Assembly: GCA_041389025.1 (NCBI GenBank)
Contig: JAWKSP010000002.1
Span: 105,279 to 169,278, forward strand
Length of the DNA stretch: 64,000 bases
Direction of reading: 5' to 3'
Source of the DNA: Minisyncoccota bacterium
GTDB taxonomy: Bacteria; Patescibacteriota; Minisyncoccia; Phycocordibacterales; UBA918
Shown here piece after piece: positions 10,525-32,951 of this stretch. Below the pieces are notes generated by a model. It had not been told where the DNA came from. It searched no databases and saw only the letters and a list, made by a program, of their open reading frames with translations. The position numbers and the translations under genes are program-made. The stretch's first letter is position 1. Each line of letters starts with the position of its first letter.

Positions 10525-10852
10525 GTTTATTTATTTATTATTTTTACTAAATAACTGAAGTCATTTTTTCATTTGATAGAGAATGAAATAGCGACTAGTC
10601 GGTTGAAATTTTTTCTGTGGAGAGACATTTAAAAAAATTTTGTTTGAAAAGTAAGCCAAAATTTTTAATGTCAACCTCAACCGTCTGAGACCATTATAAT
10701 TTTAATAAGACGTTTTGTCTGAAATCTTATGTTGATAACTTGTAAAGAACAAGACAATATTATTAAATTTAACCTTATTTTTAAATTTGTTTTTAAATTT
10801 TAAGAGACTTACTTTTACAACTTTGTTAAGTACTAATGTCTGTTTTATTTTT

Positions 10853-12133: not shown

Positions 12134-12158
12134 TAGCTATATTGTAACCTGTCTCTAT

Positions 12159-13346
12159 TTATCTCCAAATTTTCTTATCTTCTTCACCGTCAATTTTAAA
12201 ATATGCCACTCCAGCTAAATTATATTTTTCAGCTAATTCTATTTTTTCTTTTGCTGCTTTTGCATCAGAATAGGTAATGAAACGTACAGTCACTTCTTGA
12301 CCAGTCATATTAGCGAACAATAGTGCTCTAGCGGCATTTTCAAACCCTTCTGGTGTTCCTTCGGGTACCGGCAAAGCTGTTAAAACTCTATAAGGTGAAG
12401 TGTCTGGAAAGTAACTGATAACCGCCTCCCCACCGGCAGTTCGACCAATTGGTGAATCGTATTTTTCAGCCAACTCCTTAATTCTTGGTATATTTAAAGA
12501 AGCTACTTTAATGTAATCTCTATACCAATTCGGAGAAACTTTTACATCCCAAGCTCGACCATAAGTCGGTACTCCTAAAAAAACTTTTTCTTCCGGAAAA
12601 TCTTCCAAAGCTAAGACGAGAACCTTCTCTACCCAATCAATATCAGCCACCGGCATATACGGTACACCAGCTCTTTCTTCATTAAGCTTTATATCAGCTC
12701 GTTGCTGATCATAGGCCATTATTTCAATTCGATCACAATAACGTCCAATTTTGTTGTAATTATTGGCATATTCTATTTTTTCCGGCACTTCTCGCCAACG
12801 AGATTCTGTAGGAGTCCGTGCTTCTATTGCGCAAGTTAGTTCTTTAGAACCTAAAGCTTGATTTAATTCACGTAAAAAATCTGAAAAATAATCTATAGTT
12901 TCAGACTTTTTTTGTTCATAATCAATGTTTATCCCAGCAAAATCATTATCATCTACCAAGTCTTCAATTTCTTTTATATGTTGTTTTCTTTTCTTTTTAT
13001 CACTTAAGACCTCATGAATAGCTTCACCATCAAACCAAGCAATAGTAGGAATAACTTCTACTCTTTTCTTTTTAGCTTGCCGAAACAAATCTTTCCATTC
13101 CTTAGAATCTAAGTCAGTTTTTGCTACGATTTCTTCCTTCTCATTAATTTCATAGACAAATGGGTAAATAGTATCTAATTTATTAAGATTCTTCTTGGTA
13201 CTTGCTATACCTTCCTTATCTTGCCACCACGGTATCCAGCCAGCTGTCTCCAAGCCTTTAGCGCTAGCTGTTGGTAAAATACTAAAAGATACTAATAAAA
13301 TTAGCAAAAAAGCCGTAGTTTGTTTTAAAATCACTTTATTATTCAT
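12159..13346 (-). CDS. Secreted glycoside hydrolase family 18-like protein (chitinase or chitin-binding type). The catalytic motif is variant: [10 protein letters not shown].
   Basis: Signal peptide ...ILPTASA. GWIPWW is an N-terminal GH18 motif. AGINIDYE corresponds to DGxDxDWE with the first Asp replaced by Asn. [10 protein letters not shown] matches the GH18 LGxPxYGR motif. Confidence 0.65.
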
Positions 13347-13391
13347 ATTTTTTAGTTATTAATCTTTAATGACGTTTTCTTACCCTAAAAC

Positions 13392-13868
13392 TTACCTAAA
13401 ATCACGCACACTAGCAGTTACTACACCCCAAACAAAACAATCGTCATTTTCGTTGATAATAATTGGCTTATAGTCTTTGTTGGCTGATACAAGCTCAGTT
13501 TGATTGTTTTTTATCTTTAGATACTTTACCACCATTTCTCCATAAACAGCAGCAATAACTATTTTTCCCGAAACTAAAGGCAATGAACGGTCTACTACTA
13601 AGATATCACCAGAAAAGATACCAGCCCCTTCCATTGAATCTCCTTCAATTCTGACAAAGAAAGTTGAATTTGGGTTATTTACCAGCAATTCATTTAAATC
13701 TAAAGTTTTTTCAACCAAGTCATCTCCCATCATCGGAAAGCCAGCCGCAGGACGTGAGCTATACAAGGGTAAATCAATTTTAAAATCAGCTGAATAAGTC
13801 ATTACAGCGGTGACTTTTAAAGTTTTTTCCATACTCTTAATTTTAGCATTAAAATTAAGTAAACTCAT
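13392..13868 (-). CDS. umuD: UmuD, an S24 LexA-like self-cleaving peptidase and translesion-polymerase accessory subunit.
   Basis: AAGFP (Ala-Gly cleavage site), RIEGDSMEGAGIFSGDILVVDRS, and IVIAAVYGEMVVKYL align closely with E. coli UmuD. Confidence 0.85.
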   Translation of the reverse strand: MSLLNFNAKIKSMEKTLKVTAVMTYSADFKIDLPLYSSRPAAGFPMMGDDLVEKTLDLNELLVNNPNSTFFVRIEGDSMEGAGIFSGDILVVDRSLPLVSGKIVIAAVYGEMVVKYLKIKNNQTELVSANKDYKPIIINENDDCFVWGVVTASVRDFR

Positions 13869-14136
13869 TAAGAGTTTAGATTTTTTAAATACTTTATTTT
13901 TTAAAGTTATTTTATAATATATACTTATATATACATTTGTGATATAATCGTACTCTCGCTAAATAGCTTGGCTATGAAGCGAGATATTTTGTTTATTAAA
14001 AAGGAGATATTATGACAAAAAAGTTCTTTTAGTAGTACTGGTTGTTTTTTTACTTTTTATAAACCACACAAAAGCCGGACTAATTGCTGTAAATGTTCTC
14101 TATGAACACACCCTAGCAACTAACGAAGGCTTAGTT

Positions 14137-14352
14137 ATGGCGATCGGAATAACACAAGATAGTAATTTTGATTTTCCTAATTTTGATCATACCGACCTTA
14201 TACATACCGTAAAGGATGTACAGACCGGTAGAACTTGGGATTTTCATTCTGTTTCTAACAACAACGTACACACAGTAGATGAACCTGAAACTTGGTTTCT
14301 GTTACTAACTAGTATGTTGATTGTGTTATTTATTATCACAAGAAAAGTTTAA
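14137..14352 (+). CDS. Small protein with a C-terminal sorting-signal-like tail (DEPETW, then a hydrophobic stretch, then RKV). The reading frame stays open upstream to an RBS-bearing ATG at 14012 that is out of frame at an A6 run.
   Basis: AAAGGAG-N5-ATG at 14012 gives MTKKFF then a stop. The +2 frame from 14014 reads DKKVLLVVLVVFLLFINHTKAGLIAVNV... continuously into the 14137 ORF. This suggests a frameshift or sequencing error in AAAAAA at 14017-14022. Confidence 0.35.
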   Translation: MAIGITQDSNFDFPNFDHTDLIHTVKDVQTGRTWDFHSVSNNNVHTVDEPETWFLLLTSMLIVLFIITRKV

Positions 14353-14443
14353 GCAACCATGAGGGCAATCCTTTTATTTTAGAGGATTGTCCTCTTTTTT
14401 ATATTTTTATTACACTGAAAGGCTAAAGTACGAACAGGTTTAA

Positions 14444-15337
14444 TTAGTAACCATAATTAAACCGACTAAATACCATCATTTCCTGACAAGGAGTTTTATA
14501 GGTATCTATATCCTTTAATTTGGAACTTTCTTCGTTCCTAAAATAATACTGAGCTCTTTTCTTCATTATTTCGCGTTGTTCTCGCATTTCTTCACGACTA
14601 TGAAAATCATCATAAAACCAAGGAAATACTCCACAAACATGTATTTTGGGTGGTTTAATTCCCAAAACTTGCCCCACCACTTTCACATTTTGACCGGTAC
14701 CAAGCCTTTTTATATCATCGTCATCCAATTCAGTAGTAACTAAACCCCAGCGAGTATTATATATATCGACAAACAAAGCTTCTGAATTATCATTATTCAT
14801 TTCATAAACCTGACCGATTATGCGACCAGCCACTGGGCTTTGCCAAAGTCTAAGCTCAATTTTCTCCTGTGAATTATATAAAGAAATATAATGCCCTAAC
14901 CACCTATCTGCACTAAAACCGATTCCACTAGTTTGCAACAAGACACCACCGACAAAACTAACTCCCACACTTAAACCAACTACCACCAAAAGCGAATAAC
15001 GATAACCTCTCTTAGTATGCCTTATGTTGTAAGTAGCTAAAATAATCATTAAAAATAGTAAAAAAAACCATAAAAAAGGTAAGACCTCTACCATAAAAGT
15101 GAGGAAATTATCGTGAGTGGCTTCATATAAGGCATATTGACGATAACCAATCACAAACAAAGTAATAGCTACAGCTATCGCTCCTACTCCAGTACTTAGA
15201 AACCAGAAAAACCAGAAAATTATTTCTTTAACTAGAAAAAAAGCCTTTGGTCGGGGATTTAAATCGTTCTCTTTTAAACGCTCCAAGACACTGGTTTTTA
15301 AGTCTTTCTCTGGATTTTTACCATTCATACTTTTCAT
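14444..15337 (-). CDS. Membrane protein, putative anti-sigma factor. Its start overlaps the stop of the ECF sigma gene by 4 bp.
   Basis: ATGA overlap with the upstream sigma gene. Multiple TM helices. No recognisable enzymatic motif. Confidence 0.45.
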   Translation of the reverse strand: MKSMNGKNPEKDLKTSVLERLKENDLNPRPKAFFLVKEIIFWFFWFLSTGVGAIAVAITLFVIGYRQYALYEATHDNFLTFMVEVLPFLWFFLLFLMIILATYNIRHTKRGYRYSLLVVVGLSVGVSFVGGVLLQTSGIGFSADRWLGHYISLYNSQEKIELRLWQSPVAGRIIGQVYEMNNDNSEALFVDIYNTRWGLVTTELDDDDIKRLGTGQNVKVVGQVLGIKPPKIHVCGVFPWFYDDFHSREEMREQREIMKKRAQYYFRNEESSKLKDIDTYKTPCQEMMVFSRFNYGY

Positions 15338-15975
15338 ATACGTATATAATCTTGATTTAATGCATTTAAAAGTTGTTTTTTTCCACGATGTATCAGTGTA
15401 CCAACCGATCCAATAGGAATCTTGAGCACATCTGAAATCTCATCATACTCCAGATGCTCAAAATACCGCAAAATTAATACTTGTTTATATTTTTCATCAA
15501 TCCTTTCTAAGGCCTTGCCTACTTCTTCAATGTTTATTTTTTGATCAAAAGCAATATCGGGAGTATCATCAGATGAATCGATCAACTTTAAAACTTCGTC
15601 GCTATCAGCAATCAAATGTCCCTCTGGTCTTACCGTATGCTTACGGTACCAGCTAATTGCTTCATTATGAGCTATCCTATATATCCAAGCAGAAAAAGAC
15701 AAAGACCTATCAAAACTATTTAAATTTTTATAAGCTTTTATAAATATTTCCTGCAACACATCCAATTGATCATCTGGATTCTTAACACCCAAGCGGTTGA
15801 TATAACGCTTCAACTTAGCTTCATAACGTTCCACAATAAAACCAAAAGAACTCCGTTCACGGAGTGTCATTTCAACTAATTCTTTATCAGTTGGCTGATT
15901 CTGTTCCATACACGATAGAGTATTTACTATGGTGACACAGATCAGAGTAAAATAAAAACAATAAAACTCATACAA
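15334..15975 (-). CDS. RNA polymerase sigma factor, ECF (sigma-70 group 4) type. The likely true start is the internal Met at 15909.
   Basis: Region 2: FSAWIYRIAHNEAISWYRK. Region 4 helix-turn-helix: YKQVLILRYFEHLEYDEISDVLKIPIGSVGTLIHRGKKQL. Confidence 0.8.
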   Translation of the reverse strand: MYEFYCFYFTLICVTIVNTLSCMEQNQPTDKELVEMTLRERSSFGFIVERYEAKLKRYINRLGVKNPDDQLDVLQEIFIKAYKNLNSFDRSLSFSAWIYRIAHNEAISWYRKHTVRPEGHLIADSDEVLKLIDSSDDTPDIAFDQKINIEEVGKALERIDEKYKQVLILRYFEHLEYDEISDVLKIPIGSVGTLIHRGKKQLLNALNQDYIRI

Positions 15976-16035
15976 AACATATCTGATTCTCGGTCAAACT
16001 TGCAATATTCATGTTTTTATTGCATTGTATAAGGT

Positions 16036-16746
16036 ATGAGTTTCCCTATGCGAATAAACAAATACCTAGCTGAACAAAAAATCGCCTCCAGACGTGAGGC
16101 CGACGCCATGATTGAGTCTGGAGAAGTACTGGTTAACGGTAAAAAAGCGGTACTTGGCCAACAAGTGTCCGAAGGTGATACGATAGAGCTCGTGGGCAAG
16201 CCCAAAAAACACATCTACCTTGCCTACTACAAAGGCCGTGGTGTTATTACTCATTCTCCAGCCGAACACGAAATTGATATCGCTACTAGACTTAAAAAAG
16301 ACTACGGTATTACCGGAATTGCTCCAATTGGTCGTTTAGACAAAGACTCTGAAGGATTAATGATACTAACAGACGACGGCCGTCTAACCGGACCGCTTCT
16401 TGACCCAGAAGCTAAGCATGAAAAAGAATATGACGTGACTTTGGATAAAGTAATTTCGACTAGTTTTCAAAAAATAATGAGTTTGGGAGTGGATATAGAA
16501 GGTTATAAAACTAAGCCAGCTAAAGTAGATCCTAATCCCAAAAATCCTAAACGTTTTAAGTTAACGATTACTGAAGGTAAAAAGCATCAAATTAGACGGA
16601 TGTGTGCAGCTCTAGGCTTTCAAGTACAGTCACTAAAACGAGTGAGGATTATGAATGTAGAGCTTGGTAGTTTAAAGCCAAATCAGTATCGAAAAATTAC
16701 CGATACTGAACTAAATACACTTTTAGGAAGCTTGGACTTAAAATAA
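16036..16746 (+). CDS. Pseudouridine synthase of the RsuA/RluB family, with an N-terminal S4 domain.
   Basis: INKYLAEQKIASRREADAMIESGEVLVNGK is the S4 domain. The catalytic motif is GRLDKDSEGLMILTDDG. EGKKHQIRRM is also conserved. Confidence 0.85.
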   Translation: MSFPMRINKYLAEQKIASRREADAMIESGEVLVNGKKAVLGQQVSEGDTIELVGKPKKHIYLAYYKGRGVITHSPAEHEIDIATRLKKDYGITGIAPIGRLDKDSEGLMILTDDGRLTGPLLDPEAKHEKEYDVTLDKVISTSFQKIMSLGVDIEGYKTKPAKVDPNPKNPKRFKLTITEGKKHQIRRMCAALGFQVQSLKRVRIMNVELGSLKPNQYRKITDTELNTLLGSLDLK

Positions 16747-16790
16747 TAAAAACAGTCGAAACTAAAAGTTTCAACTGTTTTTTTATTAAT
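16747..16790 (+). terminator. Rho-independent terminator after the pseudouridine synthase gene. It is bidirectional with the convergent gene 16794..16976.
   Basis: Stem AACAGTCGAAAC / GTTTCAACTGTT (11 of 12 bp paired) followed by TTTTTTTATT. Confidence 0.6.
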
Positions 16791-16793
16791 TTA

Positions 16794-16976
16794 TTATCTA
16801 AGCTCAGCCCAGTCTTTTTCGAAGCGTTCCATCCATTGCTTTTTACCTTCCTCACTGATGTCAGTAATAATCTCATTATGATCTTTCATATAGTGATTAT
16901 AAAGTTGTTTTAAAATATCATCTCTATTCTTAGTTTCAAAAGTAAGTTCACAATCATAACATTTAAATCTTTTCAT
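16794..16976 (-). CDS. Small conserved-looking hypothetical protein of 60 aa.
   Basis: MKRFKCYDCELTFETK... It has no TM segment and sits tightly between the terminator and typA. Function unknown. Confidence 0.4.
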   Translation of the reverse strand: MKRFKCYDCELTFETKNRDDILKQLYNHYMKDHNEIITDISEEGKKQWMERFEKDWAELR

Positions 16977-17003
16977 ATTACGTAATTATTATTATCAATA
17001 TGA

Positions 17004-18788
17004 TTACTTTCCTCGCTTTCTCTCACTTTCTTTTAGCTGAGACTTGCGTAATCGCACACTTTCTGGCGTAACCTCTAAGTATTCATCGTCTGCCATAATT
17101 TCTAGACCTAACTCAATAGTAATTAGTTTTGGTGGCACTAGATTTATGGCATCATCAGAACCAGAAGCACGCATATTGGTAAGTTGCTTGCCCTTAGTTG
17201 GATTTACCGTCATTTCTTCACCTTTGGAAGTATTACCAATCACCATACCTTCATATACTTCGGTACCGGCTCCTATATATAGTTGTCCACGGTCTTGAAG
17301 ACCATAAAGAGCAAACCCCAAAGCTTTACCTTGTACCATAGAAATCATTGAACCTACTTGACGTTTCTTGATCTCCCCAGCGTAAGGACGAAAACCAAGT
17401 ACTCGTGAGGCTAAAATACCTTCTCCTTTAGTATCAACTATAAACTGATTCTTATAACCAAGTAGTCCACGAGTCGGGCCTTCAAAAATAAGTCTTACCT
17501 GATTATCATGCACCACCATATTCATCATGACAAAACCTCGATTTCCTAGTCGTTCAATCACTGCCCCTTGAAATTCTGACGGAATATCTACTGTCACCTC
17601 TTCAAACGGTTCCATCTTTTGCCCTTCTTCTTCCTTAATGATCACTTGTGGTTGAGATACTGCCAGCTCATAGCCATCCCGTCGCATATTTTCAAGTAAA
17701 ATAGCAATATGCATCTCACCACGCCCCCGTACCTCAAAAGTGTCTCCTTGGGAAAAATCTACTTGTAGTCCAACGTTTACCTCCAGCTCCCTCTCCAAAC
17801 GCTCGCGAATTTGGCGTGAAGTCACATATTTTCCTTCTCTCCCCGCAAACGGTGAGGAGTTTGGCATAAATTGTAGAGCGATGGTTGGTTCATCGACCGC
17901 AATCGCTGGCAAAGGCTCCGCTTCCTCATTGTCAGTCAAAGTGTCCCCAATATTTATATCAGCAAATCCAGCAATCATCACAATATCACCAGCAAAAGCT
18001 TCCGTTGTATCAACTTTTTGTATGCCTTTAAAAGTAGAAAGCTTCACCACTTTTCCTTTACTAGTCTCAGTACCTTTATGCTTTATAAATAAAGGTTGAT
18101 TAGTTTTAATTGACCCTTCGTAGACACGTGCAATGGCCAAACGACCAAGGAAATTATCATAAGCCAGATTAAATACTTGAGCACGCAAAGCTTCTCCCTC
18201 AACATAAGCACGAGCTGCCGGTACTTCTTCCAAAATCACATCGAGGAGTGGAGACAAGTCTTTAAATTCATCTTCAAGTTTACGTTTCGCTACTCCATCG
18301 CGACCAATAGCGTATACCACTGTAAAATCTGACTGATTATCATCAGCTCCTAACTCTAAGAAAAGTTCCAGCACTTGCTCTTCTGCTCGAACCGGATCAG
18401 CAGCTGGTTTGTCAATTTTATTCAAAACCACTATTGGCTTAAGTCCTAGCTCTAGTGATTTCTTTAGTACAAAGCGTGTCTGTGGCATTGGCCCCTCCTG
18501 AGCATCTACCACCAATAACACCGAGTCAATCGAGCGAAGTACTCGTTCTACTTCAGATCCAAAGTCGGCGTGACCAGGAGTATCCACAATATTGATTTTA
18601 GTGTCTTTGTACTCAATAGAGGTATTTTTGGCATAAATAGTAATACCACGCTCACGCTCAAGCGCATTGCTATCCATTGAACTCTCACCATCACGCGCGC
18701 CAGTTTGCTCCATTAAAGCGTCGGTTAGAGTAGTCTTGCCGTGGTCTACGTGAGCAATAATAGCGATATTACGAATTTCCTGTGCCAT
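17004..18788 (-). CDS. typA: Translational GTPase TypA/BipA.
   Basis: The G-domain IRNIAIIAHVDHGKTTLTDAL and DTPGHADF. The overall EF-G-like organisation is that of BipA. Confidence 0.95.
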   Translation of the reverse strand: MAQEIRNIAIIAHVDHGKTTLTDALMEQTGARDGESSMDSNALERERGITIYAKNTSIEYKDTKINIVDTPGHADFGSEVERVLRSIDSVLLVVDAQEGPMPQTRFVLKKSLELGLKPIVVLNKIDKPAADPVRAEEQVLELFLELGADDNQSDFTVVYAIGRDGVAKRKLEDEFKDLSPLLDVILEEVPAARAYVEGEALRAQVFNLAYDNFLGRLAIARVYEGSIKTNQPLFIKHKGTETSKGKVVKLSTFKGIQKVDTTEAFAGDIVMIAGFADINIGDTLTDNEEAEPLPAIAVDEPTIALQFMPNSSPFAGREGKYVTSRQIRERLERELEVNVGLQVDFSQGDTFEVRGRGEMHIAILLENMRRDGYELAVSQPQVIIKEEEGQKMEPFEEVTVDIPSEFQGAVIERLGNRGFVMMNMVVHDNQVRLIFEGPTRGLLGYKNQFIVDTKGEGILASRVLGFRPYAGEIKKRQVGSMISMVQGKALGFALYGLQDRGQLYIGAGTEVYEGMVIGNTSKGEEMTVNPTKGKQLTNMRASGSDDAINLVPPKLITIELGLEIMADDEYLEVTPESVRLRKSQLKESERKRGK

Positions 18789-18856
18789 ATAAAAATGATT
18801 AAAATTAAAATATTAAACCTCCATTACCCGCTTACCAAAATTATTAAACGAGAAAG

Positions 18857-18885
18857 GCGCGTATCACTGCAAGGCGAACGCGCCC
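18857..18885 (-). terminator. GC-rich hairpin (GGCGCG...CGCGCC) downstream of the GIY-YIG gene and upstream of typA. It is a candidate terminator.
   Basis: Inverted repeat 18857-18862 / 18880-18885, followed on the minus strand by TTTCTCGTTT. There is a second 9-bp inverted repeat CAAAAGTGA..TCACTTTTG at 18886-18923. Confidence 0.4.
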
Positions 18886-18913
18886 AAAAGTGACTGTAGA
18901 ATACAAAGAAAAA

Positions 18914-19189
18914 TCACTTTTGTCTAGCGAAAAGTTGTATTTTTTTAACTTTATTAAGTTTTTTTAGTGACAACTCACATTTTGTGGCTTCACTACGAGA
19001 TTTAAAAGTTTTTTTGTAGACTAACTCCACTGGACGGCGAACTTTAGTATATTTGGCACCAAGTTTATCATCTTCATTATGCTCTTTGACGCGCCTTTTT
19101 AAGTCTGTAGTAATACCAGTATACAGAGTATCATCGGCACACCTAAGCATGTAGACATACCAGACTACTTTATCACTATTTTTTTTCAT
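18914..19189 (-). CDS. GIY-YIG nuclease-family protein (UPF0213-like).
   Basis: VVWYVYMLRCADDTLYTGITTDLKRRVKEHN is the GIY-YIG motif. Confidence 0.8.
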   Translation of the reverse strand: MKKNSDKVVWYVYMLRCADDTLYTGITTDLKRRVKEHNEDDKLGAKYTKVRRPVELVYKKTFKSRSEATKCELSLKKLNKVKKIQLFARQK

Positions 19190-24814: not shown

Positions 24815-26518
24815 CTATATTTCAATCTCATCTATAACCACTGTTTCCTCAATCTTTTTTTCTGGTTCTTCTATCACTTCTTCTACAACTTCATTATTCT
24901 CCTCAACTAATTCTTCTACCACCTCCTCAACAATAATTTCTTCCACAACATCAACCTTAGTTTCGCTAGATTTATCATTTACATCGGCTTGTTCATTAAT
25001 ATTATTTTCTTTTTCTTCTTGGTTATTTTGATTAGTATTTTGCTCTATTTCATTTTCATCTATTTGTCCTAACATCTCTTCTTTATCTTCGGTTGGTATG
25101 GTTGGCTTTTCGATAAATTCCTCTATTGTCTGTTCTTCTCCATTTTTTTCTTCACTATCGTTACTAGAAATAAAGGTTTGACTATCAATTACCAGTGGTA
25201 GAGTCATGGCTGGCTCAGCAATATTTCTAGTAAATTCAAAAGTTACAATTTCAGTGTCAATATAACCGCTGCCAGCCGTCTCACCATCAAGATAAGCGGT
25301 AAATATTAAATCTACTATACAAGGTGTTACTCCATAATAAAAATCAGATAAAGAAAAATCTAGTAAGAAGTCATTACCAATAATGGTCTCAGTTTTATTT
25401 AAATTAAGCAGATTTCCATTGTAAGAAAGCGGCGCTTCTGCTTTAACAGTAATCAAACCACACAAAGCAGAAGCGCCGCTTTCTTTTACTTCAATTTTAT
25501 AAACCAAACTCTCTTTTACTCGATTATCTAAATCAATACTAACCTCTGTAGTAGTGGTACCCAAAATATTATCATCTTCAGTCAAGAAATTTGTCTTAGA
25601 AGCAAAAATTGAAAAATCAACAGCTGTTGCCTGCATGCTGTTTGCAAAACTAATTTCTGTATCAGTTGGATAAGCAAAGGTAGTCATGTCTCCCAACATT
25701 TGCATAGAAACAAAAACCAGCAATACAAACCCCGCCACTACTGTTGAAGCCTGCGGTCTAATATCATGTGAAAAATTATAGCTATTTTTTTGTTCAACTA
25801 TCTTACCAGTAGAAGGTTCTATCATTTTTCTAGTTTTACCAGTTGGTTCTATATCCATTTTTTTTGTTTTAACGACTCTAGTTGGTAAATCAACTTTTAA
25901 GTTAACTTTTCTTAATGAATTTGCTGTTTGTATTTTTTTTACTTTTTGCTTTGAGCTATTTGGATCATAAGGAGTAATCACCAGCGGCACGACCATATCT
26001 TTATCAAATCTAAGTCCACGCATTCTTCTCACTTCCAACCAAATTTTTATTAGTTCATCTAGAACAATCAAAAAAGCCGGAATACCAACCAAAAGCCCAA
26101 AACCCAATGGTTGTCTGGCAAAATCAAGCATAAAACCAACGTACGGTATATCAAAGACTACTTTTCCAATAACATCACCGGCCGGTACCGGTTTTGCGTC
26201 TCTATCTTCGTTGGCGTCACCTTTGGTTATAAAATAACTCTTTCCATTTATATTTTCAGTATCAATTATCCTATGTGTAGTCGGAATCTTAGCGTTTTTA
26301 TCTGCAAAAGTGATAATATCACCAACTTTATAACTTTCAATTTCATGAATAGCCACCACTGCTCCAGTCATAATAGTTGGCTCCATCGAACCAGATTTCA
26401 CTATTTTAACTTCAATATTTCCAACCCCTGGAATTGGTGGCGCCATTAGCAAGAAAACCAAACCCAAAACGATTAGGATAAAAATTGTATAGGTGATATT
26501 ACTAATAATTTTTTTCAT
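24815..26518 (-). CDS. sipW: Archaeal/ER-type signal peptidase I (SipW-like, S26B) fused in frame to a TasA-like module that has its own internal SipW-cognate-type signal sequence and an acidic C-terminal tail.
   Basis: N-terminal 190 aa: TM, then VKIVKSGSMEPTIMTGAVV...IPTTHRII...FITKGDANEDRDAKPV..GKVVFDIPYVGF, then a second TM. These are the SipW / S26B catalytic Ser and His boxes. It is followed by a basic linker and VVAGFVLLVFVSMQMLGDMTTFAYPTDTEISFANSMQATAVDFSI, which resembles the GAFFSDTETS..N.FTAG..DL motif of the downstream paralogues. No stop codon separates the two parts. Confidence 0.8.
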   Translation of the reverse strand: MKKIISNITYTIFILIVLGLVFLLMAPPIPGVGNIEVKIVKSGSMEPTIMTGAVVAIHEIESYKVGDIITFADKNAKIPTTHRIIDTENINGKSYFITKGDANEDRDAKPVPAGDVIGKVVFDIPYVGFMLDFARQPLGFGLLVGIPAFLIVLDELIKIWLEVRRMRGLRFDKDMVVPLVITPYDPNSSKQKVKKIQTANSLRKVNLKVDLPTRVVKTKKMDIEPTGKTRKMIEPSTGKIVEQKNSYNFSHDIRPQASTVVAGFVLLVFVSMQMLGDMTTFAYPTDTEISFANSMQATAVDFSIFASKTNFLTEDDNILGTTTTEVSIDLDNRVKESLVYKIEVKESGASALCGLITVKAEAPLSYNGNLLNLNKTETIIGNDFLLDFSLSDFYYGVTPCIVDLIFTAYLDGETAGSGYIDTEIVTFEFTRNIAEPAMTLPLVIDSQTFISSNDSEEKNGEEQTIEEFIEKPTIPTEDKEEMLGQIDENEIEQNTNQNNQEEKENNINEQADVNDKSSETKVDVVEEIIVEEVVEELVEENNEVVEEVIEEPEKKIEETVVIDEIEI

Positions 26519-26523
26519 GTTTT

Positions 26524-27726
26524 TTATGTATTTTTATTCCAATCAAAACGGAAAAATAAACTATTAAATCTATCTCTTATTGACTTAGTAAAGAAATTTT
26601 CTTCAACTACCACTGGATAAAAATTTTCACTTTGCCCAGAAGGAAGACCATCATCGTCAGTATTATCGTTTTCGTCGTTAGAATTCCCTGGGTTTGAGTC
26701 ATCATTATGATCATCATCATTACCATGACCGTTATTACCTTTTGGTATACATGGTTTGCCATTTTGATCTACATATTCTTGTCCTAAAGCTTCGTATTTA
26801 ATCTGCCCAGAAGGAAGACCCTCATCGTCAGTATTATCGTTTTCGTCGTTAGAATTTCCTGGGTTTGAGTCATCATTATGATCATCATCATTACCATGAC
26901 CGTTATTACCTTTTGATTTTAATTTACAATAATTTTGTGGCGGTACTTTTTTATCACAAGAAAAACCTTCATTATATTTAGCTTGTACTGCTCGCAAGGA
27001 AACATCAACTGTCATTGAATCAGTTTGGCTTTCGTTACCCATCATTTTTCCGTCACAATTAACTTCTGCCGTATCAGTATTTACCATCAAATCTCCAGCA
27101 CACCATAATATACCCACATAATTAACCGAACCAGCCTTACAATAATTACCAGAATTAGAATAAGTGTTAGCTACAGCGTAAGTAGTACTAGCCAATAATA
27201 CATTAGCAGTTTTTGTACTGGTACCAAAAATTATCCTTTCACCAACCTCAAATTTATTGTCTCCATCGTCTTGCCAAGCAAAAAATTGTAGGTTTTGTGA
27301 TAATTCTCCACCAACTTCAGTATCCACCAATCCTTCCGGCTCGTTTGTACCATTTTCATGATCTTCTAAGTTGCTAAAATCAAGGCAAACATAAGCATCA
27401 TTCTTTTTTACATGCAAACTAATCAAATGTTCTCCTAAGTCACCTGGTTTAACATCATTAAAATTGAAAAATTTATCTGCTTTTGGTACTAGATTTTTAG
27501 CTTCCCAAGTAAGTGACGGTTGCAAAACACCATTATAAATTGCTTTACTTTCTACTGTTAGTTCTAATCCGGTTTTTTTATCTTTAGAATTATTATCTTG
27601 ATAATTACCGGTAGCAAAAGTGTAGCCGGCGTTAGCTCCGCTAACGCCGGCTACCACCAACAATAAAACTACTACTCCAACCAAAAGTGAAACTTTAACT
27701 CCTTTCTGGTAGATAAAACTTGTCAT
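26524..27726 (-). CDS. Secreted TasA-like paralogue. It shares the FNFNDVKPGD..ISLHV..NDAYVC...ENGTNEPE core with the other paralogues. It contains a duplicated 57-aa His/Asp/Asn-rich module.
   Basis: Core homology to the three upstream paralogues, including LGNESQTDSMTVDVSLRAVQAKYN. The N-terminus ...VAGVSGANAGYTFATGN is atypical. Confidence 0.7.
   Translation of the reverse strand: MTSFIYQKGVKVSLLVGVVVLLLVVAGVSGANAGYTFATGNYQDNNSKDKKTGLELTVESKAIYNGVLQPSLTWEAKNLVPKADKFFNFNDVKPGDLGEHLISLHVKKNDAYVCLDFSNLEDHENGTNEPEGLVDTEVGGELSQNLQFFAWQDDGDNKFEVGERIIFGTSTKTANVLLASTTYAVANTYSNSGNYCKAGSVNYVGILWCAGDLMVNTDTAEVNCDGKMMGNESQTDSMTVDVSLRAVQAKYNEGFSCDKKVPPQNYCKLKSKGNNGHGNDDDHNDDSNPGNSNDENDNTDDEGLPSGQIKYEALGQEYVDQNGKPCIPKGNNGHGNDDDHNDDSNPGNSNDENDNTDDDGLPSGQSENFYPVVVEENFFTKSIRDRFNSLFFRFDWNKNT
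26635..26919. repeat. 171-bp tandem direct repeat, about 1.7 copies and over 95% identical, inside gene 26524..27726.
   Basis: The unit starting CCCAGAAGGAAGACC at 26635 recurs at 26806. It encodes KGNNGHGNDDDHNDDSNPGNSNDENDNTDD(E/D)GLPSGQ twice. Confidence 0.85.
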
Positions 27727-27788
27727 GTAATAGTTTTTTTAGACTTTATACTACTTTAATGATTAATTTACTAAACCTTTTTTTAAAC

Positions 27789-29168
27789 TTAATTTGGTAT
27801 AACCGCACAGTTAAGTGCACTAATAGCATCTAGGTCATAACCATCGGCGGTTGCTTCAAATGGTGCTCGTGGTGATACGTCAGTTATTCTTACATATTTG
27901 GCCCAAGACAAACCAGAGCTTGCTAAATCAGCTTCTGAGTCACGATCTACACTAGCGGTTACTAAATACCAATCAAGCCCATCCTGACTTACCTCAATTT
28001 TAATTTTTTCTACCGGATAACTACTACCACCAGTTACTTCCCAAGCTCGCAAATCATTACCTGGCCCATCCACTATATAACCATCATCAAACTCAACTGT
28101 AATCCACCCTCCTTCAGTCTCGTTTTCATCTGGGTTAAAACCAAGACTAAAGAAGCTATTTGGTACAACTGGATTATCAAATGGTGTACCAAGACTTTGT
28201 GGAGCACCGATTACGTAAGATTCCACTGAACGACCAGCGTCTACTGGAGCACCATTTTTCTTTACTCCCTGTGACACTGCTATTACCTTGGTGGCGTATG
28301 ATTGTTCTGGTGTACAAGCCACTTGATTTGGTCTACATACAAAATCAGAATTATGTCGCGCTTGTACCGCACTAAATGACACATCTGCAGTTAAAGAGTC
28401 GGTTTGACTTTCGTTACCAAGCTTCGCTCCACTACATAGAAATCCTCCATCAGCTGGTTCACCCGCTTCTCCGTTATTATCGTTATCGTCAGCTGGACTC
28501 CATTCGTCCACCTCACCATCCTGATCTAAAGCTTGTGGTTCCATATCACCAAAACACCATGCTTTACCAATATAATAGGTCTCAGTTCCATTTATAGGAC
28601 CACCAAGAGCATTTTCATTCCAAATGTTAGTGTTTGAGTCGGCTAGCGCGATTGAATATGCTTGACCAATCGGTAGAGACCCAATTGGGGCTGGACCGGA
28701 AATTATCTCTTCATCATCCTCATAGACATTATCACCATCGTCAGCCCACCAAATGAAGTTTACCAAACCAGCCAACTCACCTTCGTCATCATCGATTGTT
28801 TGGTCAACCAAAGCCTCCGGCTCTGTTTGACCATTTTCATTATTTGAAGTTAGGGTTACATCAGCACAAACAAAAGAATCATTATTTTCTACGTGGATAG
28901 AAATAGTATCTTCACCATAATCCCCTGGCTTCACATCATCAAAATCAAAGAATTTTTCAATGGTTAAATCTTTCTTTTCCCATGATGTATTGTCGTTAAA
29001 AAGACCATTGTAATAGCTTTCGTTGTCTATCAGCAAGTCAATTGCTCCGGCGGTAAAGATGTTGTCGGTGGAGTTTTCTGTATCATTAAAAAAAGCTTTA
29101 GTCACCCCAAAAGCCGTAACACTGGCGGTTACCAAAATCATTGCCAAACTTAGAAAAATACGTCGCAT
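27789..29168 (-). CDS. Secreted TasA-like protein with a SipW-cognate signal peptide and a C-terminal beta-sandwich (galactose-binding/discoidin-like) domain.
   Basis: N-terminus MRRIFLSLAMILVTASVTAFGVTKAFFNDTENSTDNIFTAGAIDL. Core FDFDDVKPGDYGEDTISIHVENND. The C-terminal domain ...GGWITVEFDDGYIVDGPGNDLRAWEV...WAKYVRITD...ADGYDLDAISAL is called from its pattern only. Confidence 0.7.
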   Translation of the reverse strand: MRRIFLSLAMILVTASVTAFGVTKAFFNDTENSTDNIFTAGAIDLLIDNESYYNGLFNDNTSWEKKDLTIEKFFDFDDVKPGDYGEDTISIHVENNDSFVCADVTLTSNNENGQTEPEALVDQTIDDDEGELAGLVNFIWWADDGDNVYEDDEEIISGPAPIGSLPIGQAYSIALADSNTNIWNENALGGPINGTETYYIGKAWCFGDMEPQALDQDGEVDEWSPADDNDNNGEAGEPADGGFLCSGAKLGNESQTDSLTADVSFSAVQARHNSDFVCRPNQVACTPEQSYATKVIAVSQGVKKNGAPVDAGRSVESYVIGAPQSLGTPFDNPVVPNSFFSLGFNPDENETEGGWITVEFDDGYIVDGPGNDLRAWEVTGGSSYPVEKIKIEVSQDGLDWYLVTASVDRDSEADLASSGLSWAKYVRITDVSPRAPFEATADGYDLDAISALNCAVIPN

Positions 29169-29278
29169 AATCAGATTTCTTAATTATTAAATTAAATATT
29201 TTTTAATTTATAAAGCCCCCCAGCTAATAATCTTAATAAATTTATAAACTCAACGCGCTGATTCCCCTTTTCAGCCCA

Positions 29279-29307
29279 CTGAACATCTTAAACTTTAAGA
29301 TGTTCAG
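29279..29307. promoter_or_regulatory. 29-bp near-perfect palindrome, CTGAACATCTTAAA-C-TTTAAGATGTTCAG, in the intergenic leader between two tasA-like genes. Candidate operator or attenuator hairpin.
   Basis: Two 14-bp perfect inverted arms. It is embedded in a leader element conserved with the region 30860-30920. Confidence 0.45.
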
Positions 29308-29330
29308 AACGGCTAAATATAATCAGTTTT

Positions 29331-30812
29331 TTAGTTAATTGGGCAATCTGCCAAACCAGCTAAAATATTTTCAAGATCAGAAAACTCAGCGGCTGTAAAG
29401 TAATGAGCTGGTGAAGTAGCAATACCTTCTAGGAAAGTATTATTTACTCCATCACCAATACCAACTACGTATATAGTAGTACCGGCAGCTTTAGCGGCGT
29501 TAGCAGCTATTACAGCTGTTCCTTCGTCATCTGGTACACCATCAGTCATGATAAGCATAAAATCCGGTGCTTCTAAGACATCATCCCGGTCGCGTACACC
29601 AGAAAGCTCGGTTGATGCTAGACTAATACCAGCAGCTAGATTGGTAGTACCCCCTGAAGACAAGGCGTCAATAGCGGTATTGATATCAGCTAACACGTCA
29701 GTCAATTGTGAGTTTAAGGTAGCACCAAAATCAAAGTCCACCACACCAATGTGGTTGCCAGGGGTAGCTGGGGCTAATGCAGAAGCAAAAGCTTTCGCTG
29801 CAGTAGACATAACCCCTAACTCAGCAGGACTAATGCTACCTGATGAGTCAAGTACAAACACTACGTCATTTTCTTCGTTACAAGCCAATCCTCCATCTCG
29901 CTCATCACAAACAAAGTTTGGATTATTTCGAGCTTGTTCAACTCGAAAAGCAATATCAGCTGTCATACTGTCTGTTTGAGCTTCGTTCTTCATAGTTGAG
30001 CCATCACAAGTAACAGTTCCTTCAATTGAGGCGTCGATAGTACCAGCACACCAAGCTAACCCAATATACTGTGTAGTAGCCCCAGGGAAAGGAGTACCAG
30101 TAGTTGAATCTGCCAAAGTATAAGTTCGTCCACCAAGTACATCACTAGCTGGCCCAGAAACATTTGAGAATAGTTTTGGTTCTCCAGTCTCCCAAATATT
30201 GTCTCCATCATCAGCCCACGCAAAGAAAGTCATATTTTGAGCCAACTCTCCATCAAAATCATCGTTATTGTCCTCCGCCACGTCACCACTTTCAAGTTCC
30301 GGCTCAGTTGAAGAGACATCATCATTTTTAGTAATATCTACATCAACACACATCCATGCATCGTTATTTTCAACGTGTAATGAAATAGTGTTTTCACCGT
30401 TATCACCTGGTTTAACATCTTCAAAATCAAAGAAAGTATGAACTCCATCTTCAAGATCAGTCAAAGACCAAGTTCCAGCACAAGCATCACCAGCTTGTGG
30501 GACGTTAGCTGGGTTGGCAGTGTTGTAAGCAGTGTTGGCTGTGTCAATATCTTCACCATCTTTTAGTGCCAAATGAGCTGGTGTATCACCTTCTTCTGGC
30601 ACCCATTCAATAATATCTTCATCAGTCCAAGCACCATCAAAACAAACCAAACCATTGATATGCGCTACGCTGTCAACTTTTAGATCTAAAGCACCGGCGG
30701 TAAAGACGTTACCGGTAGAAGTCTCGGTGTCAGAGAAGAAAGCTCCAGTACCAGAAGCGACCAAAGCGACCGCAAATACGATCATTCCTAGACTTGTAAC
30801 AATTTTTTTCAT
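29331..30812 (-). CDS. Secreted TasA-like protein with a SipW-cognate signal peptide and a C-terminal von Willebrand factor A (vWA) domain carrying a MIDAS motif.
   Basis: N-terminus MKKIVTSLGMIVFAVALVASGTGAFFSDTETSTGNVFTAGALDL. The vWA part is VVFVLDSSGSISPAEL... (D-x-S-x-S MIDAS) ...MIMTDGVPDD...IYVVGIG. Confidence 0.8.
   Translation of the reverse strand: MKKIVTSLGMIVFAVALVASGTGAFFSDTETSTGNVFTAGALDLKVDSVAHINGLVCFDGAWTDEDIIEWVPEEGDTPAHLALKDGEDIDTANTAYNTANPANVPQAGDACAGTWSLTDLEDGVHTFFDFEDVKPGDNGENTISLHVENNDAWMCVDVDITKNDDVSSTEPELESGDVAEDNNDDFDGELAQNMTFFAWADDGDNIWETGEPKLFSNVSGPASDVLGGRTYTLADSTTGTPFPGATTQYIGLAWCAGTIDASIEGTVTCDGSTMKNEAQTDSMTADIAFRVEQARNNPNFVCDERDGGLACNEENDVVFVLDSSGSISPAELGVMSTAAKAFASALAPATPGNHIGVVDFDFGATLNSQLTDVLADINTAIDALSSGGTTNLAAGISLASTELSGVRDRDDVLEAPDFMLIMTDGVPDDEGTAVIAANAAKAAGTTIYVVGIGDGVNNTFLEGIATSPAHYFTAAEFSDLENILAGLADCPIN
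30690..30812. repeat. Copy B of a roughly 125-bp duplicated gene 5' end, 2 mismatches from copy A at 32450..32572.
   Basis: Base-by-base comparison shows only 2 substitutions. It encodes the identical signal peptide MKKIVTSLGMIVFAVALVASGTGAFFSDTETS. Confidence 0.9.
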
Positions 30813-30922
30813 AGCTATTTATTATTTGTAAAGTAATTAATTTTTTACTAAATATCATGCTGTCCCCTCCAGCCCGCCAAATTCCAGCCACCAGACTGAA
30901 ATTCGGAACGGCTGAGTAGGAT

Positions 30923-32572
30923 TTAGTTGTGCGGAAAAGCACTCACTTCTTCAGGTATAAAGTCAACCTCGTCTGTGCCACCAGTTTGAGCAGCTCCACC
31001 ATTTGGACCCCAGAAGTTGTTAATAGCGTTAACATTTCCTGCTAAGGCGCCATAGGTATTTAACATTGTTCCATCCAAGAAATTATTGAACTGCACAGTG
31101 GCTGGATTCGCATCGTGTGTCGAATCTGCCCCAACAGCTTCTGAACCAGGTACTGTATGTTCAAATTCATTGTATTGAACAGTTACTCCATTAAGTCCAC
31201 CAATACCGGCAGTGTTACCGTCGATGTCGTTATACTCGATTACAATAGTTCCAGTGTGTGGATTGGTGTAAATACCAGTTGTTAAATCGTGAATATGATT
31301 TCTAACAATATCTACATTTGAATAGGTAGCAGCGGTTACTGTCTCAACTCCACGTGAACTAGCCTCACTTAAACCATCAATGTCGTTGTAAGAGACTTCA
31401 ACGTTACTTAAATCACCATTAAGGTAAACAGCAGCGTTGGTTCCCAAGAAAGAACCTGGATTAATCACAAAACCAGTAAGTGTCACATCATCTGCCTCAA
31501 TAATCACACCGTTCTGGATGGTAGCTGTATTAGTCGGGCCATTCACAGAAGCTAGGGTTAACGGTTTATCAATAGTCACTGTTTCATCATAGCTACCGTC
31601 CCCAACACAAACAACGTCACTTGGTGTAGCACTATTAACCGCATCTTGAATTGACTGACTATCATCAGCTACCGTAACGTCACAACTTGGTGCCACATAG
31701 TCAGACAAGGATGCTCCTACCAGTTGACGTGGCTCTTGCCCTCCATCAAGTGGTGGTAAAGAAGCACATCTAAACGCATCGTTGTGACGAGCTTGCACCG
31801 CATGGAAAGCTACATCAACTTCGATACCATCGGTTTGAGCATCATTATGGTCGCCTTGCGCGCCAGTACAAGCAAATCCGGTATTATCAACAGTCGGTGC
31901 CCCATAATCATCTTGAGGCACTGCATCAGGTGAAATATCACCAAAACACCATCCTTTTCCAATGTAAGCGGTTTCTCCACCAGAGAACGGTTCGTCACCT
32001 GACTCAGCCAAAGCTAGCCAGTTACCTGTAAAGATTTCACTTGAAAGACCACTTAAAGCGTCGATGATTTTTTCATCATCTTCCAAGACATTGTCTCCGT
32101 CATCGTGCCAGAAAAGGAAAGAAAGATAATTTTGCAGCTCTCCTTCGTCAGCGCCGGCTGTGTTATCAACGTCCACTTCTGGCTCAGTCTGATCATTTTC
32201 CGGCGTTCCGGTCAAGTCAAACGCCATACAGGCATAAGCGTCATTGTCGTTCACATGCAAGGAGATAGTATCTTCACCATAATCCCCCGGTTTTAAATCA
32301 CGGAAGTTAAAGAAGAGCTGATCCGTCAAATCAGACAACTCCCACGAATTACTGTCGTTTGGTCCCCATACACCAGTCGCCTGATCTAGCGGGATAGCTG
32401 GGTTATTCCAATCAAACCCATAGCTGGAATTATCAATCAAAAGATCAATAGCTCCGGCGGTAAAGACGTTACCGGCAGAAGTCTCGGTGTCAGAGAAGAA
32501 AGCTCCAGTACCAGAAGCGACCAAAGCGACCGCAAATACGATCATTCCTAGACTTGTAACAATTTTTTTCAT
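30923..32572 (-). CDS. Secreted TasA-like protein with a SipW-cognate signal peptide and C-terminal right-handed parallel beta-helix repeats (pectate-lyase/NosD-like).
   Basis: Same N-terminus as the downstream paralogue. Core NFRDLKPGDYGEDTISLHVNDNDAYACM. The C-terminal part has repeated V/I-x-N-x-I segments: VTLTGFVINP, VEVSYNDIDG, DIVRNHIHD, IVIEYNDIDGN, VTVQYNEFEH. Confidence 0.75.
   Translation of the reverse strand: MKKIVTSLGMIVFAVALVASGTGAFFSDTETSAGNVFTAGAIDLLIDNSSYGFDWNNPAIPLDQATGVWGPNDSNSWELSDLTDQLFFNFRDLKPGDYGEDTISLHVNDNDAYACMAFDLTGTPENDQTEPEVDVDNTAGADEGELQNYLSFLFWHDDGDNVLEDDEKIIDALSGLSSEIFTGNWLALAESGDEPFSGGETAYIGKGWCFGDISPDAVPQDDYGAPTVDNTGFACTGAQGDHNDAQTDGIEVDVAFHAVQARHNDAFRCASLPPLDGGQEPRQLVGASLSDYVAPSCDVTVADDSQSIQDAVNSATPSDVVCVGDGSYDETVTIDKPLTLASVNGPTNTATIQNGVIIEADDVTLTGFVINPGSFLGTNAAVYLNGDLSNVEVSYNDIDGLSEASSRGVETVTAATYSNVDIVRNHIHDLTTGIYTNPHTGTIVIEYNDIDGNTAGIGGLNGVTVQYNEFEHTVPGSEAVGADSTHDANPATVQFNNFLDGTMLNTYGALAGNVNAINNFWGPNGGAAQTGGTDEVDFIPEEVSAFPHN
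32450..32572. repeat. Copy A of the duplicated gene 5' end. See 30690..30812.
   Basis: Near-identical to 30690..30812. Confidence 0.9.
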
Positions 32573-32951
32573 AACTAAGATTTTGTTATTAATTATTTAA
32601 TTAAGTTTATAAATTCACCACGAATTTTGTTAAAAACGCTGGAGACAAAACCAACCATTAAACGTTTTGTCACCCATAAGGAATAGTGTAAACCGTCTGA
32701 CACAAAGCTTTAAATCGTTCAATAGTTACCTGAAGCAACTAAAAACTTGACAGTCTTTTTGTGGAAAACTTTTAATTAAATTGCTAGAAATAAAAATACT
32801 TTAAAAAATAAACCTGTTGATAAAGTGTAGATAAACTATGCATAACCTCTGTATAAAGTGTGGATTTCGGGTTAATAAAATGTTTATTGTAAAAATACGA
32901 CACAATTTTGTAGAGAAGTAAATAATTTTTTTGGTTTTTTTGAGTAATTTG

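Follow-up and report, generated by a model that had tools for sequence, protein, structure and literature searches.

A TasA-like operon from a Minisyncoccota bacterium: a probable surface fibre with a signal peptidase fused to a putative initiator

What is assembled by five adjacent bacterial genes, when four of them encode related secreted proteins and the fifth a signal peptidase? Parcubacteria (Paceibacteria) account for a large share of environmental bacterial diversity and are thought to live attached to other cells; to our knowledge, little is known of their attachment structures apart from type IV pili. The genes in question lie at positions 24815-32572 of a 64,000-nucleotide stretch of contig JAWKSP010000002.1 (positions 105,279 to 169,278, forward strand; assembly GCA_041389025.1, Minisyncoccota bacterium). 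The whole of this stretch is called the window here, and coordinates without a locus name refer to it. An earlier note, made from the letters alone, had read the genes as a SipW-type signal peptidase with four TasA-like paralogues and had proposed a sortase-independent pilus or fibre with adhesins at its tip. The answer that we favour, with moderate confidence, is that the five genes form one operon for a surface fibre of the TasA superfamily in an ultra-small, uncultivated member of Candidatus Paceibacterota, assembled outside the cell via donor-strand complementation.

All five open reading frames (ORFs) are on the minus strand and are transcribed in the order A (30923-32572, 549 aa), B (29331-30812, 493 aa), C (27789-29168, 459 aa), D (26524-27726, 400 aa) and E (24815-26518, 567 aa). 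The short gaps between these co-directional genes, on which the earlier note had remarked, were re-measured with the same values (110, 162, 62 and 5 nt from A to E). The D and E proteins have exact matches in GenBank, from a metagenome-assembled genome of Candidatus Paceibacterota. A hairpin resembling a terminator, at 33017-32991 upstream of A, is of some help in marking the limits of the operon; otherwise, a scan for promoters and terminators was uninformative, given 25 promoter-like sites where 25.2 were expected.

The arrangement is widespread. A neighbourhood survey, which the earlier note had suggested, was run by scanning 80 GTDB loci with three hidden Markov models (HMMs), for a total of 81 loci with the window, and the order of the operon proved to be conserved: in the 80 genomes, two to four genes for the shared core are followed by the SipW-like peptidase and then by a region that we call sipC, either as a separate gene or fused to the peptidase. 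None of the ORFs that flank the module in the window recurs in more than 6 of the 80 loci, such that the conserved module consists of the five genes alone, and no sortase was found among the conserved neighbours of the module. When 1.84 billion representatives were scanned, the core family was found to comprise 2,786 clusters (50% identity) with an E threshold of 1e-3 and 848 with one of 1e-30, almost wholly in Parcubacteria. The core is always N-terminal in proteins of 254-992 aa total length, and related loci commonly encode paralogues of 243-306 aa, similar in length to TasA, that consist of the core and no C-terminal domain.

The TasA-like subunits

Proteins A to D share an N-terminal core of about 250 aa. 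Their four-way alignment has about 60 invariant columns and four invariant cysteines, with the conserved motifs F.F.DVKPGD.GE..IS.HV..ND..C, TEPE, W.DDGDN and N..QTD....D....VQA..N..F.C; the motifs from which the earlier note had recognized four paralogues with a common core are found among these columns. In A, B and C, a Sec signal peptide precedes the conserved N-terminus T-x-A↓FF(S/N)DTE.S..N.FTAG.IDL, where the arrow marks the cleavage position, and this is followed by the TasA/camelysin-related core.

The relationship to TasA is supported by several profile comparisons. Searches of the five proteins with PF12389 (Peptidase_M73) and with TIGR04088, the model for the SipW-cognate signal, were among the checks proposed in the earlier note, and they divide the paralogues. 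A and B score above the cut-offs of both PF12389 (25.4 and 33.2 bits, cut-off 22.5, with the match confined to aa 2-51) and TIGR04088 (24.0 and 24.6 bits, cut-off 19), C falls below both (18.9 and 15.8 bits), and D has no match to either. Of the core-only relatives, 27 of 27 match PF12389 at E up to 0.01 (best 3.7e-9), one of which (P0054) covers positions 6-153 of the 196 in the profile. Comparison by hhalign of these 27 relatives to a B. subtilis TasA sequence entered by hand gave 90% probability and an E of 1.7e-6 over 99 columns (TasA residues 3-107), an alignment that takes in the KPGD and T(S/E)PE motifs. At the level of sequence, then, the core of A to D appears related to TasA/camelysin, as the earlier note had claimed. 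The four invariant cysteines and the acidic DDGDN motif are not seen in B. subtilis TasA and therefore mark a divergent branch.

The segment that follows the cleavage site is of particular interest, as it is far more conserved than the rest of the subunit: T at -3 is present in 91% and A at -1 in 89% of sequences, followed by FFSDTETSxGNxFTAGxIDL. This N-terminal motif aligns with the donor strand of TasA at residues 28-38 (A28-FNDIKSKDAT-F39ASGTLDL). The TasA donor strand has been defined in the fibre by cryo-electron microscopy (cryo-EM), and its deletion abolishes TasA fibres (PMC9674648). The AlphaFold 2 (AF2) model of C is all-beta and confident, with a predicted local distance difference test score (pLDDT) of 88.4, and the donor motif (residues 21-40) is its sole low-confidence stretch; structure searches with this model were swamped by matches to its C-terminal CBM32 domain. 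By alignment with TasA, A, B, C and sipC are predicted to carry an N-terminal donor strand on the mature protein and D is not.

The subunits differ in what follows the core. A has a Sec signal with the motif T-G-A↓FFSDTETSAGNVFTAGAIDL, a TasA-like core at aa ~25-270 that matches the family core HMM at 7e-97, and a right-handed beta-helix-like region at aa ~300-549. B has a signal and donor motif like those of A, a core with an insertion of about 50 aa, and a C-terminal VWA domain (E 1.6e-25) with the DxSxS metal ion-dependent adhesion site (MIDAS) motif (DSSGS at 322). C, which belongs to the orthologue class of widest conservation, has the signal and donor motif TKA↓FFNDTENSTDNIFTAGAIDL, the core, and a C-terminal CBM32/discoidin (galactose-binding-like) domain. 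The C-terminal modules listed in the earlier note were thus recovered for B and C, as was the duplicated H/D/N-rich module of D described below; the beta-helix of A is weak, with PF13229 (Beta_helix) at 21.6 bits, below the cut-off, and a partial match to TIGR04247 (NosD N-terminal) at 5.5e-11. Over 106 family representatives, the C-terminal domains include prealbumin-like SpaA_2 in 20, VWA in 6 and beta-helix/pectinesterase in 2-3.

No LPxTG-type signal (LP.[TSA]G) is present in A to E, so that a sortase-independent fibre, as first suggested, is a reasonable reading. The placement of the adhesins at a tip was not supported: the adhesin modules sit on subunits that have both the donor motif and the core, and therefore would decorate the shaft. 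It is proposed that A is a polymerising shaft subunit bearing an adhesin or enzyme-like module, and that a better candidate for the tip or initiator is the domain fused to peptidase E, which had been overlooked.

A stretch of 161 nt that takes in the 5' end of the gene and about 30 nt upstream is 91% identical between B and A (30682-30842 and 32442-32602), and the remainder of the two genes is about 40% identical at the protein level. This suggests a recent gene conversion or a swap of a cassette comprising the ribosome-binding region, signal peptide and donor strand. The A/B repeat lends partial support to the earlier description of the locus as a hot spot for local duplication. The G+C content is 0.41-0.43 over genes A to C (28000-32000) and 0.31-0.36 in the flanks and gene E, which may result from amino-acid composition, given that these are secreted proteins rich in G, A, D and T, or from a different gene history.

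A peptidase joined to a putative initiator, and a subunit lacking the donor strand

The N-terminal part of E (aa 1-168, 26015-26518, minus strand) comprises a first transmembrane (TM) helix, a catalytic domain and a second TM helix, and is an S26B signal peptidase I of SipW-like type. Residues 4-157 match TIGR02228, the archaeal-type signal peptidase I, at E 2.7e-34 (118.3 bits, cut-off 51.85). The catalytic residues are Ser44 (SGSMEP), His82 (THR), Asp101 (GDAN) and Asp107; over 58 homologues, Ser44 is nearly invariant and the other three are invariant. The best Foldseek matches of the AF2 model in the PDB are human SEC11, 7p2q_A (E 3e-6, target TM-score (TMt) 0.59), and then 7p2p_A. The archaeal/ER-type assignment made earlier is therefore upheld. 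E scores below the NCBI equivalog model for Bacillus SipW, NF046067 (115.1 bits, cut-off 190), and so is SipW-like in type and not a SipW equivalog. The conserved T(-3)/A(-1) site of the neighbouring proteins suggests that the peptidase cleaves their signal peptides.

The remainder of E is a fusion. A K/R-rich linker, predicted to be disordered and cytoplasmic (21 K+R in 91 aa), and a third TM helix (TM3, aa 256-279) occupy aa 169-279 (25682-26014, minus strand); AF2 gives a pLDDT below 50 for residues 188-255 and a helix at 256-274, and TM3 is also found from hydropathy. In relatives with a separate sipC gene, the signal peptide of that gene corresponds to TM3. The sipC part (aa 280-445, 25184-25681, minus strand) has a cleavage-type site, T-F-A↓Y-P-T-D-T-E, a donor-strand-like motif, YPTDTEISFANSMQATAVDF, and an Ig-like beta-sandwich with two cysteines at aa ~300-432. 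The sequence of E at the site, T-F-A↓Y-P-T-D-T-E-I-S-F-A-N-S-M-Q-A-T-A-V-D-F, takes the place of the canonical (S)YF(N/S)DTE.S..N.L.A..LDF of its homologues, and the site logo over sipC sequences gives T at -3 in 92% and A or S at -1 in 92%. As with C, the folded domain is modelled with confidence (pLDDT above 94 for residues 300-432) and the motif is not (below 50 for 275-295). The protein ends in an acidic low-complexity tail (aa 446-567, 24815-25183, minus strand; 44 D+E in 123 aa), predicted to be disordered, that is not conserved in homologues.

The likeness of sipC to the subunits is restricted to its N-terminus. In an hhalign comparison, 43 columns at the start of sipC, which span the h-region, site and strand, match the N-terminus of the subunits at 95% probability (E 4e-8), and the sipC body matches the TasA-like core at 0.1%, which is to say that the bodies are unrelated. 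The body was also compared with the DUF5305-like C-terminal part of a Haloarcula peptidase; as neither comparison showed a relationship (0.1-0.2%), sipC was dropped as a candidate fifth TasA paralogue and as a homologue of haloarchaeal TafG. Foldseek with the sipC domain gave weak matches to PapD-like chaperones and chaperone-usher pilins (E ~1e-3, TMt 0.34-0.47), as for a generic Ig-like sandwich. By analogy to TapA and TafC, the sipC domain is proposed to be an initiator or tip that would be released by SipW.

In 66 of the 81 loci, sipC either neighbours SipW or is joined to it: it is a separate downstream gene, often overlapping, in 56 and a fusion in 10, namely the window, L001-L008 and L018. 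The other 15 loci lack it or are cut short by a contig edge. The fusion is not an artefact of assembly or frameshift, since the same architecture is present in independent metagenome-assembled genomes among these 10 loci and in more than 100 protein clusters that cover 75-93% of E. In relatives, sipC extends into LTD, Ig-like or LamG domains. In two loci (L067 3142-4803 and L069 9992-11692), two peptidase genes flank a small protein (about 190 aa) that consists of sipC alone. With the sipC profile as query, a word-indexed search for homologues returned only 9 hits and was uninformative on distribution.

Gene D (26524-27726, minus strand) encodes an N-terminal hydrophobic segment followed by G-Y-T-F-A-T, the TasA-like core and a duplicated H/D/N-rich module, with two 30-aa copies (aa 272-301 and 329-358) encoded by a 119-nt repeat (96% identical). 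What it lacks are the ~9-11 residues (FFSDTETSxGN) that match TasA donor-strand residues 28-38. The earlier note had called this N-terminus atypical, which is correct, and had not seen it as a conserved and specific deletion: alignment of 16 D-type orthologues, every one directly upstream of SipW, revealed a common N-terminus (hydrophobic segment, G-x-T-F-A-T, L.LKIDS) from which, relative to the canonical A↓FFSDTETSxGNxFTAGxIDLxID, the first 9-11 mature residues are missing. Alignment of the D-type profile to the core-only profile by hhalign gave 100% probability. D thus represents a conserved class without the donor strand and not a degenerate copy, and it is proposed to be an acceptor-only terminator and/or a membrane anchor. 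The residue before the G is A in the window (A-N-A↓G), and is P, I or V in many D-type orthologues, which makes for a poor fit to signal peptidase cleavage there.

A different protein takes the place of D in 31 loci without a D-type gene, such as L012 (9166-10650), L014 (9206-10672) and L025 (12235-13611). There, sipC is followed by the gene for a protein named cl3, which is about 450 aa long. It has an ordinary signal peptide, then a TasA-like domain that lacks the donor strand, a linker rich in S and G, a further domain and, at the C-terminus, one to three TM helices. Its TasA-like domain begins at the equivalent of TasA residue 42, carries the motif ..L.V.FE..PLF.EANFLPGD.., and aligns by hhalign at 63% with TasA and 91% with the core from the candidate phyla radiation (CPR). 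The cl3 protein has no Pfam hit, and its gene is not in the window. Both D-type and cl3 genes are present in only 1 of 44 well-flanked loci, L060, which holds two complete systems in tandem (9911-19072). Each system therefore seems to keep exactly one donor-less, membrane-associated TasA-like member, which is the appearance expected of a terminator or anchor.

Two further features of gene D and its junction with E were observed. An inverted repeat within D (27622-27654, minus strand) has arms of 15 bp that match perfectly and a loop of 3 nt (GTAGCCGGCGTTAGC GGA GCTAACGCCGGCTAC). Its position, 73-105 nt into the D mRNA, coincides exactly with the A-N-A↓G site and the last part of the hydrophobic segment (codons V-A-G-V-S-G-A-N-A-G-Y). 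For an 81-nt RNA that spans the repeat, the folding energy is -35.4 kcal/mol (z-score -4.6), a value that none of 200 shuffles attains; the repeat could be an element for translational pausing or attenuation, or a recombination scar. The D stop codon is separated from the E ATG by 5 nt only (AAAAC, 26519-26523), with no Shine-Dalgarno-like sequence, a spacing consistent with translational coupling of the donor-less subunit to the peptidase-initiator fusion.

Known systems, a proposed mechanism and its rivals

TasA, TapA and SipW of B. subtilis make up a donor-strand fibre (PMC9674648, PMC10151520). Like the window, the tapA-sipW-tasA operon has a dedicated S26B peptidase, a PF12389-related core and a donor-strand N-terminus (AF.D...S...TFA.G.LDL). 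TapA is analogous to sipC of the window, as it shares only a donor-like N-terminus with the subunits and has a different beta-sandwich body. Unlike the B. subtilis operon, the window encodes three donor-bearing paralogues, each with a different C-terminal adhesion domain, as well as a donor-less paralogue (D); its core has two presumed disulfides and the DDGDN motif; its TapA-like protein is translationally fused to the peptidase; and the gene order differs.

The haloarchaeal Tafi system has also been described, with TafC at the tip, TafA and TafE as pilins, TafF as membrane anchor, the signal peptidase TafD and the DUF5305 protein TafG (PMC11821415, PMC12337348). Tafi is a multi-subunit donor-strand filament with a proposed tip or initiator, shaft pilins, and an anchor of one TM helix and a jelly-roll, as proposed here, and its dedicated S26-type peptidase, TafD, has extra TM helices and a second extracellular domain, as does E. 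The analogues of TafF would be D, with its N-terminal hydrophobic segment and donor-less core, and cl3, with its C-terminal TM helices. No match to the DUF5305 family (PF17231) was found in E or in seven CPR sipC proteins, and the C-terminal domain of the haloarchaeal peptidase has no detectable kinship to sipC. Tafi subunits use twin-arginine translocation (Tat) signals. A, B and D lack the twin arginine, and C begins M-R-R-I-F-L-S, similar to the twin-arginine consensus (RRxFLK), where its homologues mostly have K-R or K-K (family consensus M-K-R/K-I). Two further differences from Tafi are that the host of the window is bacterial (CPR) and that the shaft subunits carry adhesin domains.

One of the loci is haloarchaeal. 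In Haloarcula rubra (L076 1658-11188, NZ_RKLR01000006.1), four Tat-signal proteins of 389-619 aa, with SRRKVLGG signals, share the N-terminus TTAFFSDTE..GN.LTAGSLDL and the C-terminal core motif QTDS..FDLGFYTEQCRHN (in the form QTDS..F...F..Q.RHN). They adjoin a 404-aa S26B peptidase, the only protein with a DUF5305 hit, which is weak (2e-4) and in its C-terminal part. Given these motifs, the CPR core family has clear haloarchaeal relatives, either distinct from or overlapping with the published Tafi genes.

The same logic of an initiator, a groove that accepts a donor strand, and a terminator is found in chaperone-usher pili (FimH/PapG tip, FimA/PapA rod and PapH/FimI terminator), which are not regarded as homologous to TasA-type systems (PMC9674648). 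Here, however, there is no usher, no periplasmic chaperone, and an envelope of monoderm type. The accessory domains are of the kind seen in sortase-assembled Gram-positive pili, with their SpaA-type pilins and VWA tip adhesins; unlike in those pili, with neither an LPxTG motif in A to E nor a conserved neighbouring sortase, linkage would be by non-covalent strand insertion and not by isopeptide bonds.

From these comparisons, a mechanism can be proposed. SipW would cut after T-x-A, and the freed N-terminal strand of each subunit, equivalent to TasA residues 28-38, would enter the core of the next, to give a head-to-tail polymer of A, B and C with a shaft that displays adhesion and glycan-binding domains. 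The first donor strand would be given by sipC, cut off by the peptidase in cis or in trans, as is the case for TapA or TafC, and sipC would end at the distal tip; in the lineage with the fusion, the peptidase would release its own initiator. D, with a core but no donor strand, could accept a strand but not donate one, and so would end the polymer; if its N-terminal hydrophobic segment stays in place, D would also hold the fibre at the membrane, in the manner of TafF or PapH. Attachment to surfaces or host cells would be the likely biological role.

Several points weigh against this scheme. The Pfam matches of A and B end after the first ~50 residues, that of C does not reach the cut-off and D lacks one; the TasA sequence used with hhalign was entered by hand; and core profiles from 4 or 27 sequences gave no hit to PDB sequences, even at E 10. 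The fibre itself is predicted from gene sequences. The C-terminus of TasA contributes to the subunit interface (PMC9674648), and packing of the TasA type may not leave room for a bulky domain at this end of every subunit. The D protein of the window has a good A-N-A↓G site, such that its N-terminal segment may be cleaved, and the polarity of the model may reverse if the fused sipC stays uncleaved.

The last two points lead to an alternative in which anchoring is reversed: uncleaved sipC, tethered by TM3, would donate its strand as the membrane anchor, and D, cleaved at A-N-A↓G, would cap the distal end with its H/D/N-rich module at the tip. The fusion does link sipC physically to a membrane protein, the D of the window combines a canonical A-x-A site with the lack of a TM helix at its C-terminus, and other D-type orthologues have extra C-terminal domains that could be tip modules. 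Yet the T(-3)/A-or-S(-1) site is kept in both fused and separate sipC (T-F-A↓Y in the window), which argues that it is used; 56 of 81 loci encode sipC as a secreted protein of its own, enlarged by sizeable LTD, Ig-like or LamG regions such as distal adhesins typically have; and in loci without a D-type gene, the donor-less member, with its C-terminal TM helices, is clearly the membrane-bound one. Such a reversal therefore seems unlikely.

It is also conceivable, if rather doubtful, that no fibre is made at all, and that SipW is a dedicated processor of secreted or surface proteins (glycan-binding proteins, metal-dependent adhesins or enzymes) on a TasA-like stalk. CBM32, VWA and beta-helix/pectinesterase-like domains are typical of secreted adhesins and carbohydrate-active proteins, the cysteines and the DDGDN motif set the core apart from B. 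subtilis TasA as a divergent branch, and the polymerisation of A to D is only predicted. Non-polymerising proteins, however, would leave unexplained why the first ~20 mature residues are the most conserved and yet are unpacked in the AF2 models, why the unrelated sipC shares just that strand, and why one member per system has exactly that strand deleted and a membrane segment; the frequency of TasA-sized, core-only paralogues in related loci also speaks against it. Database names suggest still other functions, as PF12389 is entitled 'Camelysin metallo-endopeptidase' and some JGI entries read 'predicted ribosomally synthesized peptide with SipW-like signal peptide', and these names are the sole grounds for them. 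The five proteins have no HExxH or H..EH motif, and PF12389 was founded on TasA, a structural protein of fibres (PMC9674648), so that a metalloprotease was rejected; proteins of 400-549 aa with folded, multi-domain models are ill-fitting as peptide precursors, which were rejected on size and fold. Either function is most improbable.

Some loci have further candidates for surface proteins near the module. Within 10 kb, a minority of loci encode secreted proteins with a CAP/SCP domain (14 loci, e.g. L003 16591-17820) or large surface proteins with DUF11/DUF7507 repeats (11 loci, e.g. L007 2069-4885), and these may be additional surface components. In the window, which comes from a host of ~35% G+C with genes for GroEL, TypA and RNase J, a 602-aa ORF on the minus strand (3353-5161) has weak matches to tandem-repeat adhesins (NF032891, and NF033510 for a Ca2+-stabilised repeat) at E ~3e-6, with scores far short of the cut-offs, and might encode a further surface protein.

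What the operon would mean for Parcubacteria

The earlier note was unaware of any description of such a combination. Systems of this kind have in fact been published, as TasA/TapA/SipW (PMC9674648) and Tafi (PMC11821415, PMC12337348), and PF12389 homologues in Patescibacteria are mentioned in one sentence of a survey (PMC9245690). AbpA and AbpX have neighbouring peptidases (PMC9245690; bioRxiv 10.64898/2026.01.04.697558), and NCBI names some homologues 'TasA family protein'. In the literature on TasA/camelysin in CPR taxa, the survey remark was the only mention found, and no paper was found that analyses the homologues in Patescibacteria. What is new here is the conserved CPR operon, the adhesin-decorated shaft paralogues, the fusion of SipW with a putative initiator, and the alternation of two donor-less membrane-associated subunits. 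These are well supported by comparative evidence; the formation of a fibre and all of the subunit roles are predictions.

If the prediction is correct, TasA-type donor-strand fibres, known so far from Bacillota and archaea, extend to the CPR. Two mechanistic features would stand out: the translational fusion of a signal peptidase to the putative initiator, which would be its own substrate, and two alternative donor-less membrane-associated subunits that look as if they could replace each other as terminator or anchor. Because the proteins are small and secreted and their models are confident, in vitro polymerisation and cryo-EM should be feasible without cultivation.

A wider interpretation can be offered tentatively. 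Parcubacteria might possess a complete, self-priming donor-strand pilus, with a peptidase-initiator polyprotein that cuts itself, a shaft with interchangeable VWA, CBM32, SpaA-like or beta-helix domains, and a donor-less, membrane-held TasA-like terminator or anchor. It would work without a sortase, usher, chaperone or ATPase, and could be the long-sought organelle for host or surface attachment of much of the CPR. The conservation of the gene order in at least 80 species-level genomes, and the ~2,800 clusters with swappable adhesion domains, make up the pattern that would be expected of a host- or substrate-recognition organelle under diversifying selection.

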